Source: Magallana gigas
Taxonomy: Eukaryota
Assembly (NCBI RefSeq): GCF_963853765.1
Contig: NC_088860.1
Coordinates: 34,348,001 to 34,412,000, forward strand
DNA length: 64,000 nt
Direction: 5' to 3'
Shown here: positions 8,099 through 53,249 of the stretch, one piece after another
How the letters are laid out: each line of letters starts with the position of its first letter
Numbering within the stretch: position 1 is the first letter of the stretch
Program-made: the position numbers and the translations under genes
Notes under the pieces: model-generated
Seen by the model: the letters and a program-made list of their open reading frames with translations, nothing else
The model's database searches: none
What the model was told of the DNA's origin: nothing

Positions 8099-8875
8099 AT
8101 GTGCCCCTTTCAAATTGGAAGTAAAGTATCTTGGAACTGAAAATGTTGGAAAATAGTTCGTTTGAATCATATATGAATTCCTTTGTTATAATTTGTATAT
8201 TAAGAACTTTGTCTATTGCTTTGGGTAAGAAATGTCAGCAATACAGAAATTTTCAAAAATCCAGTAGGGCATCTACTGTCTATGAATCTTCTTTTTTAGT
8301 TTCAAACACAGGGCGAAAAACCATCTTTAAGCAAGTCCTTAAAGGTGGCTTAAAGGTGACTTAAAGGAGCTTAAAGGCTATACAACCTTTAAGCCGCCTT
8401 TAAGTCACCTTTAAGCAAGTGCTTATAGGTCCTTAATGTCCAAACTTCTTTAAGCTACCTTTAAGCCACCTTTAAGCCACCTTTAAGCATCTTTAAGTGG
8501 CATTTACGCTCTCTTTACGCTGCCTTTACACTGTCTTCAAGTGGCCTTTAAGTCAATATTGATCAAGCTGAACAATAAAAACATATATTAAATGCAAAAG
8601 CTCTTTTATAGAGATGGGAGGGGGTCATCCGAGTGATAATATAATTTCCAAGGAAGAGGGGGGGGGGTGTTCCAGGCGGTTTTAATCGGCGCTCCATTAA
8701 ACACAGATCGCTATCATCAGCACCGCTCTGATGGACACAGATTGCCGTTATAAAATTCTTTATAATTTTTGGGGGGTTTCAAATTTATTGTAGGTATGAG
8801 CGCAGTCTCTGTATCTTAATATGTGCATAAAACTAATTAAAGTATGTTTGTTTCCTATTATAAAGTAATCGGTGA

Positions 8876-10245: not shown

Positions 10246-10924
10246 GGTTTTTTTGTGTTTTTTTTTTTTTCATTTTTCTTTCTAGAACAAAAACCGTTTT
10301 AATACATTTTCTTTCATAAAGCTAATACATTTTGTTGGAAATTAAGCACAATATTGAATTAAATTTTCTTTAATGGCTTAAAGGTGGCTTAAAGGTGGCT
10401 TAAAGGTAGCTTAAAGGTGGCTTAAAGGTGGCTTAAAGAAGTTTGGACATTAAGGACCTATAAGTTGTCCTTAAAGGTGGCTTAAAGGTGGCTTAAAGAT
10501 GGTCTTTAAGCTGCCTTTAAGCCATCTTTACGCTTTCTTTAAGCCACCTTTAAGCAATACTTATAGCTTAAAGGTAGCTTAAAGGTTGCTTAAAGATCGT
10601 CTTTAAGCTACCTTTAAACACCTTTAAGCTATCTTTAAGGAGGACTTAAAGATGGTCATTCATCCTGTGAAAAGTACTTAATTTCATTACAGTGAACTCT
10701 TTAATTGTTTGTATTTTTGAGAGGAAAATACCTTTAATATGTTAAAATGTTGAGATTTTCTATCACTAGAGGTACATGTTGATTCATTACTACAGAAAAT
10801 GGTGCAATTTTTTTTTACAAAGCTGCGCATGCAAGTTTTACTGCATATCTCTTTTAGCATTGTATGAGTTATGTATGTGTTGTTTAGTTACTTTAATTTT
10901 TTTTTTATTTGTTTTATGGGTTTT

Positions 10925-34104: not shown

Positions 34105-34540
34105 TGTAACATTTCTGGGTTCAGGTATTCGGTTGCTCTACCTGAGCAATTTAAGAAATATGTAATTAAACTATAACTTTCTCAATCAAATATTTTAATC
34201 AATAATATTTACAATATCCCACTCTATTATGGAGCGCGCGCGCTTTCTATTAACCCTAACAGCTATCACAAGCTAATATAATAACAACTCAAGTCTCGAA
34301 AGCCTTATTCAGGCACATAAGACTTATCCTAATATCAAGGGTTTGTTCTCACCTATTACGAAGTGAACACTTTCAGCTTCAGACTGCAACTGCCTTACAA
34401 CCTCCGTTGTAGCCGCTTATATACTATCACAACCCACGTGATCAACGAGGATCGAAAGGGAGTGATAAACCGGAAGCGCTTATTACTCAGCTCCAGTAAA
34501 CAGAATGGGATAAATGATCTCGATTTCGACATTTGTTTCA
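34105..34540 (-). repeat. 3' LTR
   Basis: TG..CA ends. 8 mismatches versus the 5' LTR by manual comparison. Preceded on the minus strand by G-rich PPT GGAGGCGTGGGT. Confidence 0.95.
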
Positions 34541-34869
34541 TTACCCACGCCTCCAGGAAATGCGTCTCGCATTTAAATCATTAACCTGGTCTAACTATCA
34601 CGCAAGGGACACGAAAACTATAATATTGACAACAACAAAAGACTAAATTTACGACTTTCAATTATTCTGATAAATCAACAAATGAATAATAGAGTATGCT
34701 CTATGTACAAATAAAATCAGCAAAAAGAGTCATTGTCGTAAAAAGAAAACCATCATAATACAAATCAGCCAATGATTTATAAATGGCGCAAGCGCCGCTG
34801 TTTTATTATCACAAAAAAAAATGTTATGATTTCAAAAGATTTCAGTCAATAATTGCCAAAACGCTTCCT

Positions 34870-35548
34870 TTAAAACCAATTCTCGTCCTCGTGCATTTCA
34901 ACAACTGTTTTTCCGTCTCTTTGATACGTCTCCTGCACTCGATCCAGTTTCCGCCGTTTGTGTCCTTCAGTCTGCGTATCCCACATCTTCGAACTGCCCA
35001 TTGGTCTGGATACTGGCATCGACAAGTTGACGCTGTGTCAGTGTATTTGCATCACGAGACGACAATACAGACACTGGAGATAAATCTGCATCAATGGATG
35101 AGCGTTTTCTTGGAGTGGTCATCGGGTGTCGAAACGGGGAAGGAGCGCGTGGCGTCAGAAGATCCCGAGAAACCTTCGACTTTGTTGCTGGCGCGCAAAC
35201 AGGAGTCGGTCTTGTCGGCTTTCTTTGGACAACTTCTTCAACCAGGGGCTGCTGTGGTGTACTTCCAACTACATCCGACATAATCCTTGGGTCCAGTTGC
35301 TCCCAATCATCAGTGCCGCTATCAGCCGTAACTGAAACAATTTCATTATGTCGAGTGCGGCGATGTCTCCCCATGTCACTTTTCTTATTCGTGGCATAGT
35401 CACAATCGGCGCATTCAAATTTCTTCTGCCTTCGCTTTCTTCCACATTCCACCACATGCTTTTCCCACTCGCTCTCATTTGCAATCCTGACATTACACAT
35501 TGGACATCGATGGCCTTCCATCCTAGGTGTTGTTTTTGTATTCACCAT
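34870..35548 (-). CDS. Accessory zinc-finger ORF of the Gypsy element (193 aa as is; about 225 aa if one base at 34978 is removed)
   Basis: CPMC..H..C and CADC..H...H zinc-finger motifs. Splice-acceptor-like TTTGTTTTCTTTTCGTAATAG directly before the ATG. An alternative frame continues TQTEGHKRRK...ENWF* to 34870. Confidence 0.75.
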
Positions 35549-35649
35549 TATCTATTACGAAAAGAAAACAAACATGCTACAATTACTCTAATTTCAAAAA
35601 CTCAAATGAACACAGCATTTACACATATCTACTATGAAATTTTAAAGCT

Positions 35650-38600
35650 CTAAGCGCTGTAATCGACTTCATAGTCCTGCAGCCATTTAGGTAAGTTTTT
35701 AGTACGCCGCGGTCTACTATTTTCGCATGCGCCAATTTCTTCTTTTAATGCACAAGGTCCCTCAGCAACAAGAACATTGTCTTGAGATTGCTCTTCAACA
35801 AGCTGATCATCCTCTTTCTCAACCAGATCTTCCTCAGTTTCTCCCTGAAGGATCTGAGGTTGACATCTCATTCTATCACAATGTATTACTGTGTTCTTCC
35901 CGCGAGACCCGCATGCAACCGTGTAAAGAATATCAGACAGTTTATTCTGTACTTCGAAAGGCCCTCTCCAAAAAGATGTTAACTTTGGAGAGCATCCACT
36001 CTTCCTTACCGGAAAGTATACATAAACCATATCTCCTGTCTCGAATGAAGACCAAGACACCTTAGTATCATGATACTTTTTCTGTCGAAGCATCTCACCT
36101 GGCATATGTTCTCTCACAACTGCATGCGCGTTTTCTAAGCGCTCGCGCAAAACCCAGACCCATTGATGCGCTGGAATGTCTTTCATCTCTGTTGGCATTT
36201 CAAACATTAAATCTAGAGGTGTTGTTGCCTCTCTTCCAAGCATTAGCATATTTGGAGAAAAGTTGGTACTCTCATGTACTGTTGAGCGGTACGCCATAAG
36301 GATATAGGGAAGATGTAAGTCCCAATCCTTTTGATTTTTTTGAACATAAGTGCTCAACATTGATATCAGCGTTCGGTTGAAGCGCTCAACCATCCCATCC
36401 GATTTACGATGATATGGGGTAGTCCTGGTTTTTGTTATTCCCAACAACCGACACATCTCCATAAATAGCTTGCTTTCATACTGGCGCCCCTGATCTGAAT
36501 GGATAACAGAGGGTACGCCAAATCTTACTATCACTTGCTCCATGATTGTGCGGGCGATAGTTTCTGCCTCCATATTCGGTAGAGCAAACGCATCCGTCCA
36601 TTTCGTGAAATAATCTGCGACGACGAGAATATGACGATTCCCCCTGTCTGTTTCGGGTAATTCGCACAAAATATCAGAGGCCAATCTTTCCATTGGCACA
36701 CCAGATGCTAGAATCTGCATTGGTGCCCGACGCTTAGGGATTGGATTCTTTCGTCTACTACAAGCATCACAGCCTGCTATGTACTGATGGACGTCCTGTT
36801 GTAATCCCGGCCAATAATACCTCTGTCTAATTCTGGCCAATGTTTTCGTAACACCAAGATGACCTGATGTTTTATTATCATGGCACATCTTTAGTACATT
36901 CCTCCTCTCTGAGTCAGGTATTATGACTTGAAATGTCTCTCGGTTTGAAGGAAGCAAAATCCATCGCCGTACTAAGAATCCATTTTGAATGCTCAGTCTC
37001 TCAAATTGGTTCCATAGTGACTTCACTACATAACCATATTGTGTCACATCAGAAAATGCTGGTCGTCTGCCATTTTCGACCCACTGGCGCACTAGCTGAA
37101 TATCTTTCTTACCTCCTTGCGCTTCCAGTAGATTTCCATTTTCTGCTTCAGAGTACTCTTTATCGAGTTTTGGAAACGCTTGCAAAGTTTTCACTGATGG
37201 AAGAGGCGAATCTTCCAAAGTAGGGACATATCCACATTGATTGCAGGGTATCCTACTAAGCGCGTCCGAATTTCCATGTTTCTTACCTGGGCGGTGCTCA
37301 ATCGTCATGTCATACGTGCTAATGACCTCGAGCCATCTTGCCAACTGGCCCTCTGGGTTCTTGAATTTAAGCAACCACCTAAGCGATCCATGGTCTCTTC
37401 TTAGTAGGAACCGTCTGCCGTACAGATAATGGCGGTAGTGTTTAATAAAGTGCACTACAGCCAATAACTCTTTTCGAGTTACACAATATCGTGTTTCGGC
37501 TTTTGTCAGTGTGCGACTCGCATAAGCTATCACGCGCTCCTTTCCATCTATTTCTTGAGAAAACACTGCGCCTATAGACCAATTGCTTGCGTCTGTGTCA
37601 AGTATAAATGGTTTAGATATGTCTGGCAGTGATAATATTGGTGCAGAAATCAGCCTGTTTCGAAGTGTTTCAAAAGCATCATGTGTCTCCTTTGTCCATT
37701 GAAACCTGCGCCCTTTCTCTGTCAAGCGGTGCAACGGTTTTGCTTCTGAAGCAAGGTCCCTGATCAATCGCCTATAGTAGCTGCACAATCCTAGAAAGGA
37801 GCGGACCTCAGACACAGAAGACGGAACTGGCCATTCCGCAACTGATTTGATTTTTTCCGGGTCTGTTGCAATGCCGTCTTGTGAAATGATATGCCCTAGA
37901 TACGAGACTTTAGTGGCAAGCAGATTGCACTTTCCTGCTTTTAATTTAAGCCCCGCTCTCAGCAGTCTATCAAATACCCTTTCAAGGTTGCAAAGCATAT
38001 CGTCGAATGACTTACCAATAACTATAATATCATCGAGATATACAAGACATTTGTCCCATTGTAGACCTGCAAGGACCGTCTCCATTAAGCGTTCAAATGT
38101 CGCAGGCGCACAGGTAAGACCAAAAGGCATTACCTTGAACTGGAATAAACCTTTGCGCGTTACAAAGGCTGTTTTACTCTTGTCATCCTCTTCCATTGCA
38201 ACCTGCCAGTAGCCGCTGTTGAGGTCAAGCGTAGAGAATAAAGCATGTCCTGACAGATGATCAAATGCTTCTTCTATGTTTGGAAGGGGATACGCGTCCT
38301 TAACTGTGACTTCATTGAGTCGTCTATAATCTATGCAGAAGCGCATCGACCCATCTTTCTTGCGCACAAGAACCACAGGTGAAGCCCAGGGGCTATTAGA
38401 GGGTTCAATTACCCCTTTCTCCAACATTTCGTTCACCTGTTTATCAACTTCTTGCATTAGATGCAAAGGAATTCTTCGTGCCCCTTGTTTAATTGGTTTC
38501 TCTATAGGCCCAGTGTTGATTTTGTGTTTAACTACTGAGGTTCGACCTAAATCAAAGTTCGAAGAAGCAAACAAGTGCTGATAACTTTGAAGGAATTTAT

Positions 38601-40770
38601 CGGCTTGCATAGCTTGTGCATTAGATAGATTTTCCTTACATCGATCAAGCAATTCTCGCAAATCAGGTCGTAGTTTTGAACTATTTACTACCGCTGTTTC
38701 TTGCGGATTCTCTTCATCAGCACCCGTCATCTTTGCCAGCAAAGTCCCCTTGTATATTTGCTGAGCAACGTCTGTAACATTCATCAGACATACAGGCACC
38801 GTTTCACTGCCCTTAACCAATGTCCTACCTACGAAAGCACGCCCCTTCTCAAGAAATCTCTCTTCTGGCTCGACAATATAGTCTGAGGCTCCAAATGTAT
38901 TCTGTCCTGGAACTTTAGCCTCTACAATCATTTCACTCCTAGGAGGGATACAAATATCGTCGGCTGCAACAACACGAAAACAACCCAGGGTCCCCTCACA
39001 AGAAATGCGATATTCCTCATTGTTAAGTCGTATTGTATTCGAGTTGAGATCTATAATACCCTTGCCTTTCTTCAGAAAATCTAGACCAAGGATTCCATCG
39101 ACCGTAACATCTGTAACCATTGCTGGGATAAATGCTTCAGTCTTCCCAATTTTGATAAGATATTCTGCTTTTCCATATAGAGAAAGTGGGTTTCCACTTG
39201 CGTTCAAAACTTTCTGTCCATTCTCCTCTACTGCTGGGCGTTTTTCTGCTGAAATGATATCATGCACCCTTTTTGAGATCAACGTCAATGATGCACCTGT
39301 ATCAATCAACATTTTTGACCGTACTCCACGTATATCAGCTTCAACAAAAATACCAGATTCGTTAATCATGGTGTTTCCACCAACATGTCCTTGTGCTTTG
39401 CGCTGCTTCCTCCTGCGCTCACTACGAATCCGCCGCGCATTGCCACCTTTCTTCGCTGATGCATTACTGTTTCTGTTTGTTTCTTTATCTTTAAGTTTCG
39501 GACAATTTCTACGAATGTGTCCCTTTTCCTTGCAATAATAGCAAGTCACCCCATCATTTGTGTTTCTGACTGGCAACTGTAATGTTCGTCTCCTCCGAAA
39601 ATTCTGATCTTGGACCTGTTTTTCCAAGTTATCTAACTGGGTTTGCATCCTCGCCATAAATTGATTAAGCTCTGTTGATTGTGCGGGTTGATCGCACTCG
39701 CGTTCCTTACCCTCAACCATCCGCAAATCACCTCGCCTTTCTGTTCTATAGTATGCATCTAGTTCTACAGCAAGTCGGATTGCATCATTTAAGTTTTCAG
39801 GCCTATTCTGTTTAATGCGCAAGCGCATATCCGAATTTACTAGTGCATCAATAAATGCGTCCTTACCAAGCGTCTCCCTTAATTCCGCTGTCGCCGTAGG
39901 ATAAGCAAGGCACGTCAATCTACGGATGGCCTGTCCTAGCTCGGACAGGGTCTCAGACGCTCTTTGTTTTCTCTCCTTTAACTGCGCCCGGTAAAGTTCG
40001 GTCTGATTGGGTGGAGCAAATCGTTCTTCAAGAGCTTTTACCAACAAGTCATAATGCTGCCCTGTTTCTTTCGAAACATTTCCCAGTACGCCCTGAGCTG
40101 TCCCTCTTAGTGATACAGCTAAATACAGGCCTTTCTCTTTTTCCGACCAATTGTTTATAGTAGCGCATGCATCAAAATGGGACTTATAGTCAAGCCAAGA
40201 ATTACTTCCATCAAATGTCGCTGGTTTGATGTTACACCTTGAACCTTTATTACCGTGGTCAAATTCCTCCCGTAGTCGATTTTCATTTATCAAATGTCTG
40301 GTTCCAGCTCCCAGGCTATGCGTCTGTGCGCTGTTATGAAAATTTCTTTGTCGATCATTTGGCGCATTCGCTAATAAAGCAGAAGCATTCACAATCGACG
40401 GTGCTCGCGCTCTCCGCTGTGCGCTCACCATAACTGGATGTTCATCATTCCTTAAGCTGTAATTATACAGCGCATCCGCAAGTTCCGTTTCACTTCTGCC
40501 ATTTCTGTTTTGCGCTCTCGCTGGTCGCACTGTAACATGTTCATTGGATGCTCCTTCAACAAGGTTTCCACTTTGCTCATTTCCCTGCAGTACCACTGTA
40601 TCATCAGTTGCATGACTCTGGTCCCCGATCGCACCAACCAAAGTCGCTATGCCTGAATCGCGCGCTTGCGCTCGTCTATCTAACGGTGTTGAGTATCTCT
40701 CTATCTCCTTGCGCAACCGCTCGCAACTGCTCTCCAAAAATGAAATTTCTTCATCTACTATTTCCTCCAT
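35650..40770 (-). CDS. gag-pol: Gypsy Gag-Pol polyprotein (1706 aa, uninterrupted)
   Basis: CCHC knuckle CYYCKEKGHIRRNC, protease LIDTGAS, RT YLDD, RNase H TDAS, integrase HHCC, DDE core and GPF motif. Confidence 0.97.
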   Translation of the reverse strand: MEEIVDEEISFLESSCERLRKEIERYSTPLDRRAQARDSGIATLVGAIGDQSHATDDTVVLQGNEQSGNLVEGASNEHVTVRPARAQNRNGRSETELADALYNYSLRNDEHPVMVSAQRRARAPSIVNASALLANAPNDRQRNFHNSAQTHSLGAGTRHLINENRLREEFDHGNKGSRCNIKPATFDGSNSWLDYKSHFDACATINNWSEKEKGLYLAVSLRGTAQGVLGNVSKETGQHYDLLVKALEERFAPPNQTELYRAQLKERKQRASETLSELGQAIRRLTCLAYPTATAELRETLGKDAFIDALVNSDMRLRIKQNRPENLNDAIRLAVELDAYYRTERRGDLRMVEGKERECDQPAQSTELNQFMARMQTQLDNLEKQVQDQNFRRRRTLQLPVRNTNDGVTCYYCKEKGHIRRNCPKLKDKETNRNSNASAKKGGNARRIRSERRRKQRKAQGHVGGNTMINESGIFVEADIRGVRSKMLIDTGASLTLISKRVHDIISAEKRPAVEENGQKVLNASGNPLSLYGKAEYLIKIGKTEAFIPAMVTDVTVDGILGLDFLKKGKGIIDLNSNTIRLNNEEYRISCEGTLGCFRVVAADDICIPPRSEMIVEAKVPGQNTFGASDYIVEPEERFLEKGRAFVGRTLVKGSETVPVCLMNVTDVAQQIYKGTLLAKMTGADEENPQETAVVNSSKLRPDLRELLDRCKENLSNAQAMQADKFLQSYQHLFASSNFDLGRTSVVKHKINTGPIEKPIKQGARRIPLHLMQEVDKQVNEMLEKGVIEPSNSPWASPVVLVRKKDGSMRFCIDYRRLNEVTVKDAYPLPNIEEAFDHLSGHALFSTLDLNSGYWQVAMEEDDKSKTAFVTRKGLFQFKVMPFGLTCAPATFERLMETVLAGLQWDKCLVYLDDIIVIGKSFDDMLCNLERVFDRLLRAGLKLKAGKCNLLATKVSYLGHIISQDGIATDPEKIKSVAEWPVPSSVSEVRSFLGLCSYYRRLIRDLASEAKPLHRLTEKGRRFQWTKETHDAFETLRNRLISAPILSLPDISKPFILDTDASNWSIGAVFSQEIDGKERVIAYASRTLTKAETRYCVTRKELLAVVHFIKHYRHYLYGRRFLLRRDHGSLRWLLKFKNPEGQLARWLEVISTYDMTIEHRPGKKHGNSDALSRIPCNQCGYVPTLEDSPLPSVKTLQAFPKLDKEYSEAENGNLLEAQGGKKDIQLVRQWVENGRRPAFSDVTQYGYVVKSLWNQFERLSIQNGFLVRRWILLPSNRETFQVIIPDSERRNVLKMCHDNKTSGHLGVTKTLARIRQRYYWPGLQQDVHQYIAGCDACSRRKNPIPKRRAPMQILASGVPMERLASDILCELPETDRGNRHILVVADYFTKWTDAFALPNMEAETIARTIMEQVIVRFGVPSVIHSDQGRQYESKLFMEMCRLLGITKTRTTPYHRKSDGMVERFNRTLISMLSTYVQKNQKDWDLHLPYILMAYRSTVHESTNFSPNMLMLGREATTPLDLMFEMPTEMKDIPAHQWVWVLRERLENAHAVVREHMPGEMLRQKKYHDTKVSWSSFETGDMVYVYFPVRKSGCSPKLTSFWRGPFEVQNKLSDILYTVACGSRGKNTVIHCDRMRCQPQILQGETEEDLVEKEDDQLVEEQSQDNVLVAEGPCALKEEIGACENSRPRRTKNLPKWLQDYEVDYSA

Positions 40771-40816
40771 TGTAAATACTGATTTAAAATTATTAGTATA
40801 GATTATTTCTTTTGCC

Positions 40817-40836
40817 GAATCCCGACGCTGCCACCA
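40817..40836 (-). other. Primer binding site, likely tRNA-Leu
   Basis: Minus strand TGGTGGCAGCGTCGGGATTC just inside the 5' LTR is complementary to a tRNA 3' end ...CGCUGCCACCA, typical of eukaryotic tRNA-Leu. Confidence 0.7.
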
Positions 40837-40842
40837 AATTTA

Positions 40843-41278
40843 TTTAACGTTTCTGGATTCAGGTATTCGGCTGCTCTACCTGAGCAATTTAAGAAATATG
40901 TAATTAAACTATAAATTTCTCAATCAAATATTTTAATCAATAATATTTACAATATCCCACTCTATCATGGAGCGCGCGCGCTTTCTATTAACCCTAACAG
41001 CTATCACAAGCTAATATAATAACAACTCAAGTCTCGAAAGCTTTATTCAGGTACATAAGACTTATCCTAATATCAAGGGTTTGTTCTCACCTATTACGAA
41101 GTGAACACTTTCAGCTTCAGACTGCAACTGCCTTACAACCTCCGTTGTAGCCGCTTATATACTATCACAACCCACGTGATCAACGAGGATCGAAAGGGAG
41201 TGATAAACCGGAAGCGCTTATTACTCAGCTCCAGTAAACAGAATGGGATAAATGATCTCGATTTCGACATTTGTTTCA
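40843..41278 (-). repeat. 5' LTR
   Basis: Copy of 34105-34540. The terminal CA on the minus strand is mutated to AA. Confidence 0.95.
41154..41161 (-). promoter_or_regulatory. Candidate TATA box in the 5' LTR (TATATAAG)
   Basis: Position in the U3-side half of the LTR. Motif only. Confidence 0.5.
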
Positions 41279-45243: not shown

Positions 45244-47581
45244 AACAAATAGTGTATAATCACCTGAACAGAGACATGGATCTCTGCCCACCTGTCTTAA
45301 TGGTTCCAAACATTGTCCATTTTTACATTTCCCATATCTACAATGGGAACCACTTCAATCAACACTGCTAACGGCTTTTGATGCGTTTTCCTTTTTTAAA
45401 TACAAATGTACTAATACTTGATAGAAATTGATTGAAACATTTAAAAAGGAGCGATTTATCAATATTTTATTGTGTTTTCTAAAATAACAATAACAAGAGA
45501 CAGAGGTAGATATCAATAATGTGTAAACTACAAGTAGCAATCAATGACATGCAAATTGATGGTAGCAATCACTGACATGTACAACAACGTTAGCAATCAA
45601 TAGCAATGGCATGTTATTGCAAACCCCACTTGATACTATATGCTTCAGTTGATATAGAGATGCGTTGAATCATGACAGTCTATTTGAAGTTACATTTAAA
45701 CGAGTCGGATTACAGGTTGCAGTTTAAATATAGAAACGTTTTAATATGCCGATTTGGTACCCGACCATTCTTACGCAGTAGTGATATTTTATTTCCTAAC
45801 TGCCAGCTCCCACTTATGACGTTAAAATTAAAAAGCTTCTATCAGGACTGCAAAATCTTAATAAATTACCGCAATAGTTGACCCCGATCGAGTTCTCACA
45901 ATAATCAATTCTTGTTTGTTATGGTGTAAACAAAAACACACCGCTGTCCTTAGATATATTAAACATGCTCCTAATTTCATTTTTAGCATTGTGTTTCCTT
46001 GATAAATTCAACCATTTTTACCATATCAATTGAATTTGAGGCAGTAGTTATTCTGCTTATCTTATTCCATGAAATTTACAACAGACTGTATATAAATATT
46101 ACAGAAATTGCGTTTCATTAAACACCAATCAATCAATGGCACACTCACTTTTACAAGTGTGTGTGTGCCTTAAATATTGCAAAATTTGCAATATACGGCG
46201 CAATTTTAGTCTGATCTGTGATTAACCGTATTTTGTTACTCACTCAGTCTGTAGGAACATTAATTTACCTCAAAATTCATCAGAAAAAAATATATAATAT
46301 TAATGTTGACGGCTTGTCGCTTTAATTACTTGCCGCAGCTTTTCTCTAAACCACGCTACCCGACCTCAGATTGCTAAATGCACGTGCAGATTGGGTCGCC
46401 ATTTGACACAGGTTTACATGCATACAAACCACACTTCTTTATTTTATGGAGTTAATGACGATGTTTCAAAGATTTTCAGTACAGATTTCTTGGAAGTAAA
46501 TAGGTGAAGACATATAGTGATAGTGTAACGCGTCTAATGGATTTCACGGCATGTCAACCCGAATGTTCCCGTGGATCTACATTTTGAAGAAAGCCTTTTT
46601 GTTAGGCAAACACTAGTTCTATTACAGTTTGTTCAATTCATACGACATTCCACATATGGTACTTTTGAATGGTTACGTAAAATATATTTGTTCACCTAAC
46701 AGTTTCTGGCGAATTTCTACACAAAAACTGATAACGTTATTCGATGTGCGAAGAGCAATCTGTGCAACTTTAAATTAAATGCACCCTTCTCTGCTTTTAA
46801 AAAAGGTTTCTTTGGGTTGTTTTTTTTTACCAGTAACATCGTTTATACATGTACAATAACATCGACCCGTTTGTTTTCAAATAACTCTGTAATTTTAACT
46901 TGCAAGCACAACTTTATTATTAGTTTTCTTTCTCCTACTTTTTTTCCACGAGTTAGTCTTTATTATTTCGATAATGAGCGAGTCTATAAAAATGCGCCAA
47001 TCAGAACCTTTGTTGCAAATCACAATTGCACAATTGCAATATACACCGATTAGAAATTGTCGTTATATTCTCCCTCACTGCGGTTGTCCGAATATAAAAC
47101 AATAAAGTTCTAAATGAATAAAACCAACAAGTACTACATAGGTACGCTGCTCGCTAGCGTTATTTTATTTATACACAAAAACACATATTAAACAACCATC
47201 TGTCAGCCAAAAATCAACACTTTCCATATCATCTGCAGCCATTTTAACTTAAATCGCTACTAGCGAGCGTGCTTAGAGTGCCACGCCACCGCATGGTCCT
47301 ACTATTTATATTACCTGACCACGTGACCCGAAACCCATTCTTGTACGTATGAAAACCAATCACGCACATAATTTTAATTATATTCTCCCTCACTATGTTT
47401 GTCCGAATATTAAACAATAACGTGCTAAATGAATAAAAGCAACAAATACTACATAGATACGCTGCTCGCTAGCATTTAGAGATACAAAGAGATATTCTAA
47501 TATGTCGTTTGGCTGACAAGTACACAAGCAATACAATTTATAACACAATAAACGACAACATACATGTATAAACATTTAATT

Positions 47582-51699: not shown

Positions 51700-52996
51700 T
51701 ATAATGCCAGGTTAATCAAAAGTAGAAACTAATGACATGTGAAACTAAAGACGCTATCCATGACATGAAAAACAAAGGAAGCAATCAATGTCATATATAA
51801 TGAAGGTAGCAAACGATGGCATATTTAACGATAATGGCAACAAATTACAAAAAGGTAGCAATTAACGACATGTAATTGAAGGTAGCAATCAATAACATAT
51901 GACAAGAAGGTTGCAATCCATGGCATGTAACAAGACGGTAGCAATCAACGACATGATATTTGAAGGTAGCAATAAATGACATGAAGATGAAAGTGGAATC
52001 AAAGACATGTAAATGAAGGTAGCAATTAATGACAGGTTATTTGAAACTAGAAATCAATGACATGTAAAATAAAAGTTGAAATGAAGGACTCAATGAGTGT
52101 TTAATGAAGGCGGGAATGAATGACATGTAAAGTGAAAATAGCAATGAATGACGTGTAAGACTAAACTAGCAATCAATTGCACGTAAAATGAAGACAGCAA
52201 TCAATGAAATGATGTAGATTGAAAGTAGCAATGAATGACATGTAAAAGTAATAGTGCCATCAATGACACGTCAAATAAAGGTAGGAATCAATGACATGTT
52301 AATAAAGAAAGCACTTAATGATACATTAAATGAAGGTAGCAATCAATCAAATCAATGACCACATGTTGACCTAACAATCAATGACATGTAAAATAAAGAT
52401 ACCAATCAATGACATGCTAACAAAGGTAGCAATAAATGGCATGTAAGACTAAAGTAGCAATCCATGGCATGTTAAAATGAAGGTAGAAATCAATGACATG
52501 ATGTAGAATGAAGGAAACAATCAATGACATGGTGTAGAACGAAGGTAGCAATTAATGTAATGATGAAGAACGAAGGTAGCAATCAATGATATGTACAATA
52601 AAAATACCAACGGAAGACATGAAATCAAGGTAGCAATCAATGGCATAATGCAGAAAGAAGGTAGCAATCAATGTAATGAATTGGAAAGAAGGTAGCTATC
52701 AACATGTACAATAAAAGTAGCAACCAATGACATGTTCAAAATAAAGGTACAGGTAACAATGATATCACGTAAAACGAAAAAAGGTAACAATCAACAACAA
52801 ATAATGATAGCAATAAATGACATGTAAAACAAATATAGCAATTAATGACATGTAAAACAAATAATGATAGCAATAAATGCCATGTAAAACAAAGGTAGCA
52901 ATAAATGATATATAAAATAAAGGTAGCAATAAATGACGTGAAATAAAGGTAACAGTATATGACATGTAAAACAAAGGTAGCAATCAATGACATGCA
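51700..52996 (+). repeat. Degenerate about 28-30 bp minisatellite (consensus near AAAATAAAGGTAGCAATCAATGACATGT)
   Basis: Dozens of GGTAGCAAT(C/A)AATGACATG units. A short remnant of the same array lies at about 45525-45620. Confidence 0.9.
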
Positions 52997-53249
52997 GAAT
53001 GTTATGTGGCTTTAATAGTGGCATTTAGACAGGTAAGGTCTCCACTGATAAAGGCCAAGGACAATGTAATGAATATTGAAAACAACTATGGCATATTATG
53101 TTACAAGCGCTTGTTACAAAAGTATCACTATAAAGGGAATTTTGTCCATAACTCCTTTTTAACTCCTCACAATGAAAAACATGTATGCCTCTTAACGAAA
53201 GTTCACTTAAAAAAACAAGAAAACGAGCGACTTTTGCTGCTAAAGATAC

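Follow-up and report, generated by a model that had tools for sequence, protein, structure and literature searches.

A conserved third gene with a histone-H3-like N-terminus, two zinc fingers, and LC8-type motifs in a clade of bivalve Gypsy retrotransposons

INTRODUCTION

What kind of protein is encoded by the open frame that lies between pol and the 3′ LTR of a Gypsy retrotransposon in the oyster Magallana gigas, how is it expressed, and what might it do for the element that carries it? In errantiviruses this is the place of env, which is expressed via splicing. How animal LTR retrotransposons stay active despite chromatin silencing is a largely open question, and to our knowledge self-encoded counter-silencing proteins are known mainly from plants. 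A sequence-only reading of the window (the whole stretch of 64,000 nucleotides that was analysed) had proposed that the frame encodes a non-env nuclear regulatory or trafficking protein with two zinc fingers, a splice acceptor immediately before its start, and a motif for the dynein light chain LC8 close to a C-terminal tail hidden by a one-base indel. That reading also named what should be compared among family copies, namely the indel, the ratio dN/dS, and the conservation of the fingers, the TQT motif, and a KRRK patch. Here we follow the gene, termed ORF3, from the window copy to its relatives and weigh the functions that it may serve.

RESULTS

The region 34105–41278 of the window (minus strand, as are all features of the element) is a young Gypsy LTR retrotransposon of 7.2 kb, with TG...CA ends and a 4-bp target-site duplication, ATAT. 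Its 5′ LTR (40844–41278) and 3′ LTR (34105–34540) differ at 7 of 435 aligned bases; a primer-binding site (40821–40841, ends approximate) is complementary to the 3′ end of tRNA-Leu(AAG), and the GAGGCGTGGG polypurine-tract motif of the clade precedes the 3′ LTR. A single gag-pol frame of 1,729 aa (35650–40839) encodes gag, a CCHC knuckle, protease, RT, RNase H, and integrase. The order protease-RT-RNase H-integrase, together with the TG...CA LTR pair, the target-site duplication, and the tRNA primer site, places the element in Ty3/Gypsy. Directly before the 3′ LTR, an ACGC...GCGT inverted pair (34541–34565) flanks the polypurine tract and is conserved in all ORF3 families; a small stem or a finger-binding site is possible. 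Elsewhere in the window, a degenerate tandem array with a unit of approximately 28–31 nt and a GTAGCAATCAATGACAT core was observed in two places (51700–53010 and 45485–45610), and arrays of the 11-nt CTTTAAGCCAC unit (8376–8565 and 10373–10652) lie in inverted orientation approximately 1.9 kb apart, like the ends of a DNA element.

ORF3 spans 34870–35548 and encodes 225 aa in intact sister copies. The sense frame that had been claimed between gag-pol and the 3′ LTR is present in the window, where it is open from 35551 to 34967 and encodes 194 aa from an ATG at 35548. The quoted acceptor text, GTTTGTTTTCTTTTCGTAATAG|ATAATGG, is found there as well, with the first exon base at 35551, and DASIQT lies in frame in the window copy as stated. 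The one-base indel at 34978, which was said to hide a tail of TQTEGHKRRKLD...ENWF*, also proved correct: the tail occupies the other frame, ends at 34870, and is reached by sister copies that are open through this point. When family copies were compared, the frameshift near 34979 was found to be private to the window copy, as none of the nine other loci that span this site agrees with the window there, among them four (L002–L005) with ORF3 open for 222–226 aa to ENWF*, and as 7/7 RNA reads over the site likewise differ (three in run X21 and four in run X22). The family thus has an intact gene, of which the window copy is a damaged version whose protein would be truncated. Intact copies have three TQT-type motifs with an 11-residue period (DANTQT, DASTQT, and DVGTQT; 34964–35053), as opposed to the two noted earlier; of these only the middle one, DASIQT, still matches in the frame of the window copy, where the first has diverged from the motif and the frameshift cuts through the third. 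A basic patch and a C-terminal beta-hairpin predicted by AlphaFold2 on the intact copy L003 (34870–34960) are out of frame in the window copy.

By inspection, at least 18 divergent Gypsy families of the 564-Mb genome analysed have ORF3 downstream of pol, namely the 13 families of the analysed set plus L051, L082, L086, L092, and L097. A protein search of this genome with ORF3 gave 94 matches; 20 distant loci were examined, and all 20 had pol upstream and a related ORF, with 23–58% identity to the window ORF3 and approximately 47–74% identity in pol. An unbiased sample was drawn as 40 loci chosen by RT similarity alone. The 20 nearer loci had (i) ORF3 in seven cases, (ii) an internally deleted remnant in three, (iii) a pol-fused form in one, (iv) another zinc-finger gene in one, (v) no such gene in seven, and (vi) a truncation in one; the 20 more distant loci had other zinc-finger ORFs after pol in 18 cases, none in one, and a truncation in one. 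No trace of ORF3 was found at L136. The RT tree covers the loci of this genome, is unrooted, and is weak at its deep nodes. In many ORF3 carriers the LTR pairs are 97–100% identical, and many of these carriers are thus young. In one locus (L048; G000 C5:21732000–21741999), a tandem Gypsy arrangement holds two identical ORF3 copies 6945 bp apart.

Synonymous sites were saturated in eight of nine between-family pairs (dN 0.34–0.51), and the dN/dS of ORF3 was 0.37 within the family of the window copy and 0.14 in the sole unsaturated between-family pair. Judging from these ratios, ORF3 is under purifying selection across families. Several lineages have nonetheless lost ORF3 while retaining long gag-pol frames and several copies, which indicates that the gene is not essential in cis. 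A multi-copy subfamily (L093, L094, L101, L130, and L135) has an internally deleted ORF3 of which the acceptor, the N-terminal tail, and the TQT end remain, and its RT is identical or nearly so to that of the intact L064. Both the loss of the gene and the multiplication of copies with a deleted ORF3 alongside an intact sibling of identical RT fit either action in trans or an advantage that is dispensable.

The nearest named relatives of the ORF3 protein are from oysters, and protein sequence matches were named from Magallana gigas, Crassostrea virginica, Saccostrea, Ostrea edulis, Pinctada imbricata, and Argopecten irradians. One homologue filed under a Thiodiazotropha bin lies on a 1.9-kb contig and is probably host DNA. 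A profile search of 1.84 billion representatives returned mostly host poly-zinc-finger proteins, and 32 short rows among the 150 matches listed were examined; in the ESM Atlas the nearest clusters were unnamed, and residues 70–135 were without a named match. In an alignment of 40 ORF3 homologues, gathered with profiles that already contain the motifs and with near-duplicates and fragments left out by hand, the columns common to at least 30 of the 40 were those of the N-terminal tail, the finger ligands, W-x(2,3)-DPG, R-K-x-T-x-P, Q-T, and two residues in the C-terminal part. Conservation of the fingers and of the LC8-type motif, which the sequence-only reading had proposed to compare among family copies, is borne out among the 40 homologues. 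The KRRK patch is kept in the closer families only, with a looser basic patch in the distant ones.

Both zinc fingers that had been claimed were found. Finger 1 (35444–35506) is a C2HC finger of the form CxxC-x12-H-x3-C that falls below the Pfam cut-off, and its ligands C15, C18, H31, and C35 are invariant (40/40). Finger 2 (35348–35413) is of the C2H2 type and scores at or above the cut-off for Pfam zf-C2H2 and zf-H2C2_5; with K/R at helix position −1 in 39 and R at +6 in 36 of 39, it has the base-contact residues of a putative DNA-binding finger. Downstream lie an acidic W-x(2,3)-DPG motif (35285–35305; W in 38, D in 37, P in 37, and G in 35 of 40) and an R-x-x-T-x-P motif (35207–35224; 36/40), the latter of which resembles a 14-3-3 mode I phosphosite and may act as a 14-3-3 switch. 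In the AlphaFold2 model of L003, a natural intact copy, the fingers are confident, the middle is disordered (residues 147–192 have pLDDT <50), and a C-terminal beta-hairpin with strands at residues 199–210 and 213–224 is likewise confident (pLDDT approximately 92). A PDB fold search with this model yielded weak zinc-finger rows but nothing at E ≤ 0.001, and a PDB sequence search with the last 66 residues gave nothing real. None of the 40 homologues had a membrane-type hydrophobic stretch (the highest 19-residue hydropathy was 1.08, and none reached 1.6), and ORF3 is therefore not env, in agreement with the earlier reading.

The most telling part of the protein, as we read its sequence, is its N-terminus, which had gone unremarked in the earlier reading. 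In the window copy this segment (35519–35548) is MVNTKTTPRM, in which T3, K4, T6, and R8 stand in the register of histone H3; host H3 in this genome starts MARTKQTARK. With the Met closest to 14 residues upstream of finger 1 taken as the start of the register, the 40 homologues had T3 in 30, K4 in 37, T6 in 38, R8 in 25, K9 in 27, and R2 in none, residue 1 was small in all 40, and the register from the Met was fixed in approximately 37. With a matrix built from the ORF3 tails alone, H3 residues 1–9 outscored all but 1 of 201,619 background 9-mers. A genome-wide scan with M-[APVL]-x-T-K-x-T-x-R-K gave 53 matches, made up of 29 H3 genes, 23 ORF3 starts, and 1 chance match (the reversed control gave 1 match); as both H3 and ORF3 went into the design of the pattern, this census speaks for exclusivity and is not an independent discovery. 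A distant family that was found by RT similarity only sits on a long branch of its own; its tail begins MARTKNTARK or MARTKNTVRK, and the fingers, RRxTxP, and three Q-anchored motifs are all retained. This family equals H3 at 9 of 10 residues, and four more RT-chosen families keep K4 and T6. Tails of the T-P-R-K kind, which we take to be also a CDK-type site, occur in 20 of the 40 homologues (of the 38 with T6); the other 18 have T6 without P7, and 16 of these have K4.

The known H3-tail mimics (H3TM) follow the rule iM-Z1-R2-X3-K4, in which R2 is required as the rule is described (PMC8166343). The ORF3 tails have the small residue 1 (40/40) and K4 (37/40), but the main type lacks R2 (0/40); it thus falls outside the H3TM rule and does not belong to the group, although it may function in a similar way, and many H3K4 readers would not bind it. 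R2 is present only in the pol-fused family, and the family of the window copy is among those without it. The pol-fused family comprises L143, L144, and L145 (G000 C1:68939850, C5:1620041, and C9:48981687), with an ORF3 of 197 aa that starts MARTKNTVRK or MAKTKNTVRK. Here the pol frame continues into ORF3 without an intervening stop, and an LTR donor is absent; these loci represent either a Gag-Pol-fused form or a stage in the origin or capture of the gene.

The claim of a TQT-type motif for LC8 gains from the comparison, since at least one LC8-type match was present in 38 of 40 proteins, compared with 4.5 expected from their own shuffles, and two or three matches in 13. In the last motif Q is present in 39/40 homologues; among these 39, T/V/I stands at −1 in 39, T/C at +1 in 39, D/S at −4 in 31, and E/D at +2 in 30, and the motif lies 34–46 residues from the C-terminus in 38. 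The published LC8 preferences at −4, −1, 0, +1, and +2 fit these residues (PMC6607443). Small residues are frequent at position −3 (A in 8 of 39); these are described as less favored there (PMC6607443) and count against our main model. A host LC8 gene is present in the genome, and with a TQT-type anchor, a polar −4, an acidic +2, and a disordered region the ORF3 protein is a predicted LC8 client.

Post-pol genes of other kinds were observed at further loci. In a sister Gypsy lineage (L119:946–2190 and L120:1048–2220, both minus strand) the post-pol ORF encodes two zinc fingers and a KCTD-type BTB domain (Pfam BTB_2; E 2e-18 and 1e-15, respectively), and further sister lineages combine fingers with TQT motifs or with an apparent coiled coil. 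The presence of a BTB domain in place of the LC8 motifs, and of TQT motifs or a coiled coil in other lineages, suggests that pairing is a common need. A post-pol gene with two fingers, a Ser/Pro/Arg-rich linker, and a conserved 'DPR[FL]FF[AL]GAP' domain without a Pfam family was seen at L108, L113, L114, L116, L117, and L118, and its C-terminus carries two or three TQT/TQV motifs. At L099, L104, L109, L110, and L112 and at L102 and L106, the N-terminus of the post-pol ORF is acidic and is accompanied by two fingers and an N-x-x-[FY]-I-[DN]-P-G motif; L102 also has two TQT motifs and an apparent coiled coil. The post-pol ORFs of L103, L107, and L111, of up to 525 aa, combine fingers with a conserved domain at the C-terminus that matches no Pfam family. 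As to the proposed nuclear regulatory or trafficking role, the first part is in keeping with a non-env accessory gene with conserved fingers. Trafficking is the weaker reading, as LC8 is described as a dimerisation hub and not a cargo adaptor, its clients and the dynein chain being in competition for one groove (PMC6607443), and as BTB replaces the LC8 motifs in a sister lineage.

The predicted splice acceptor (35552–35573) consists of a pyrimidine tract and an AG 3 nt before the ATG. Such a tract with an AG at most 20 nt from the ATG is present in 12 of 13 families, versus 10% of other ATGs and 17% of shuffles, so that the acceptor read from the window is conserved across families. The AG-to-ATG distances (0, 1, 3, 7, 8, 13, and 17 nt) are not all divisible by three, which excludes a coding first exon. 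In the 5′ LTR of the window element, a TATA box (41154–41161) marks the predicted promoter, and a predicted donor, TAG|GTGAGA (41085–41093), would begin the intron at 41090, 71 nt after the TATA; this donor, which matches the acceptor, had also been overlooked in the earlier reading. For the LTR donor test 17 of 19 ORF3 families were scored, L082 and L086 being left out because no polypurine-tract motif was found in them. The TATA box lies 81–142 nt into the LTR in 17/17 of these families, and a first- or second-ranked donor lies 45–110 nt after it in 14/17, with a distance range chosen after a first look at the data and with a rough donor matrix. The three misses were a top donor at 112 nt, a top donor at 120 nt, and the pol-fused family, which has none; among ORF3-less families, 0/3 have such a donor. 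Near the start of gag, where a donor for env would lie, none was conserved across families.

No reads joining the LTR to the acceptor were found in four RNA runs, with a depth of 0.4–1.3 over the acceptor in the raw-read runs. Most read pairs in run X22 are oriented in a way that usually points to antisense RNA of the element, which counts against the main model. Candidates rejected as splice evidence were (i) a joint at 38312–39062, the only one in the four runs, which has CA..CC ends in one contig and is a deletion variant; (ii) a loose read end at 35556, which is the start of ORF3 of a diverged relative; and (iii) a loose read end at 41092, at the predicted donor, which looks like an LTR variant with a short deletion. 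Overall, the acceptors and LTR donors suggest that ORF3 is likely made from spliced RNA.

DISCUSSION

ORF3 is a real and conserved third gene of a bivalve Gypsy clade, which joins an H3-like tail to two zinc fingers and LC8-type motifs. We lean, by a little, toward the view that its protein is made from spliced RNA and serves as an LC8-paired nuclear regulator that keeps its own LTR active. Transcription would start approximately 30 nt downstream of the TATA box in the LTR, and splicing would join a short non-coding exon, across gag-pol, to the acceptor before the ATG. Removal of the initiator Met, which we propose because residue 1 is small in every homologue, would expose the H3-like end. 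Host LC8 would bind the TQT motifs and pair two chains, so that two fingers become four; the fingers would bind element DNA, and the tail may there engage H3K4/K9 enzymes or readers, as bait or decoy, in a manner favoring expression. The protein would act in trans. A bolder form of this model, which we offer tentatively and hold to be plausible rather than probable, is that an H3-tail decoy on a sequence-specific, LC8-dimerised finger scaffold disarms or redirects the H3K4/H3K9 machinery of the host at the LTRs of the element; this would be a counter-silencing device of an animal retrotransposon and one form of a wider kit, with TQT, BTB, and coiled-coil modules pairing the two fingers of sister lineages. 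With its 9-residue tail, two fingers, and LC8 site, ORF3 is in any case a candidate that is small, modular, and open to testing, and one genome provides natural controls in the form of families that have ORF3 intact, deleted, absent, or fused to pol.

The same parts could be assembled to the opposite end, as a self-limiting repressor whose unmodified H3-like tail recruits repressive complexes to the LTR, restraining transposition and sparing the host. Lineages in which ORF3 was lost multiplied nonetheless, which fits this reading, as does the report that NuRD is bound by host zinc-finger factors whose H3-like N-terminus is unmethylated (PMC8166343) and that ASCIZ activity is lowered by LC8 occupancy (PMC5963919). 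The main type is, however, without R2, the acidic tryptophan motif seems more like an activation segment, and a pure brake would be expected to be lost quickly, yet most families keep ORF3 under selection; we consider self-repression unlikely.

An equally unlikely account makes ORF3 a component of the particle or integration complex, in which the LC8 motifs would link it to dynein or scaffold it, and the fingers and tail would steer integration or shield the new copy from silencing, in the manner of a chromodomain or Vpx-type factor. Viral proteins do use LC8, and the pol-fused family (three copies, in frame with the end of pol and without an LTR donor) would make the protein within Gag-Pol. 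Other families have a separate gene with its own acceptor, however, BTB stands in for the LC8 motifs in a sister lineage, and a fused tail would have no free N-terminus unless it were cut out. The competition of LC8 clients with the dynein chain and the role of LC8 as a dimerisation hub (PMC6607443) speak against it as well.

A little less likely again is a Rev- or CERV-like export factor, made from spliced RNA, that would bind the unspliced genomic RNA via its fingers and basic patches and export it from the nucleus. An element that splices out gag-pol must export its unspliced RNA, and Cer1 is described as using CERV, a phosphoprotein from a spliced mRNA, to do so (PMC10309623); the joint loss of donor and gene and the conserved phosphosite-like motif point in the same direction. 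Such a factor would leave the H3-like tail unexplained, and finger 2 is basic at the DNA base-contact positions −1 and +6. That the H3 likeness is incidental, with the tail serving as a basic localisation or CDK-type signal of an ordinary small transactivator or LC8 sponge, agrees with TPRK in half of the homologues and with the missing R2 but is improbable given the many tails with T6 and K4 that lack P7, the family nearly identical to H3, and the fixed register from the Met.

Public databases name proteins of the ORF3 type (P0208–P0212, P0015, and P0045) 'zinc finger protein 296-like', 'RE1-silencing transcription factor-like', or 'zinc finger protein 407-like', so that transcription-factor counts and expression studies in bivalves include these retrotransposon proteins unrecognised. 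A search of the open-access literature, with Repbase and subscription journals outside its scope, found no description of ORF3. The survey of mollusc Gypsy clades by Thomas-Bulle et al. (2018) concerns Gypsy families of oysters and other molluscs, as here; it is described as classifying on RT/RNase H only, and the word ORF is absent from its main text (PMC6238403). ORF3 is thus apparently undescribed, and would be a new form of retroelement accessory regulator.

Among known systems, the errantivirus env (ORF3 of Drosophila gypsy) is alike in that it is the third sense ORF, lies after pol and before the 3′ LTR, and follows a splice acceptor (a predicted one in the oyster element); the oyster protein differs in that it is without a membrane segment (0/40), has zinc fingers, and has its predicted donor inside the LTR. 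The sORF2 of env-less Drosophila Gypsy elements, another extra small gene, reportedly serves cell-to-cell entry, and the absence of a membrane segment sets the oyster protein apart from it too. CERV of Caenorhabditis elegans Cer1 is likewise a non-env nuclear accessory protein of an LTR retrotransposon from a spliced mRNA (with splicing and a nuclear role predicted for the oyster gene), but it exports RNA, and its description, by which we set it apart, names no finger pair, H3-like tail, or LC8 motif (PMC10309623). H3TM proteins (PMC8166343) share an H3-like N-terminus with K4 after Met removal, which is proposed for ORF3; the main type of ORF3 is without R2, matches H3 further along (T3, T6, R8, and K9), and is encoded by a retrotransposon. 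The histone mimic of influenza NS1 is also an H3-like stretch of a parasite, though C-terminal in NS1 as described (PMC12937675). ASCIZ/ATMIN has N-terminal zinc fingers and a disordered C-terminal part with several TQT motifs for LC8 (PMC5963919), a likeness that is architectural, and the nuclear regulator Panoramix has disordered C-terminal TQT motifs for LC8, the fly protein being dimerised via tandem TQT/TQV (PMC7919418). Both, as described, are nuclear regulators and host genes with no H3-like tail mentioned (PMC5963919, PMC7919418), and Panoramix silences transposons (PMC7919418), whereas the oyster ORF3 is carried by one. If the H3-tail decoy is true, it would use the same LC8 pairing trick as the piRNA silencing complex of the fly host.
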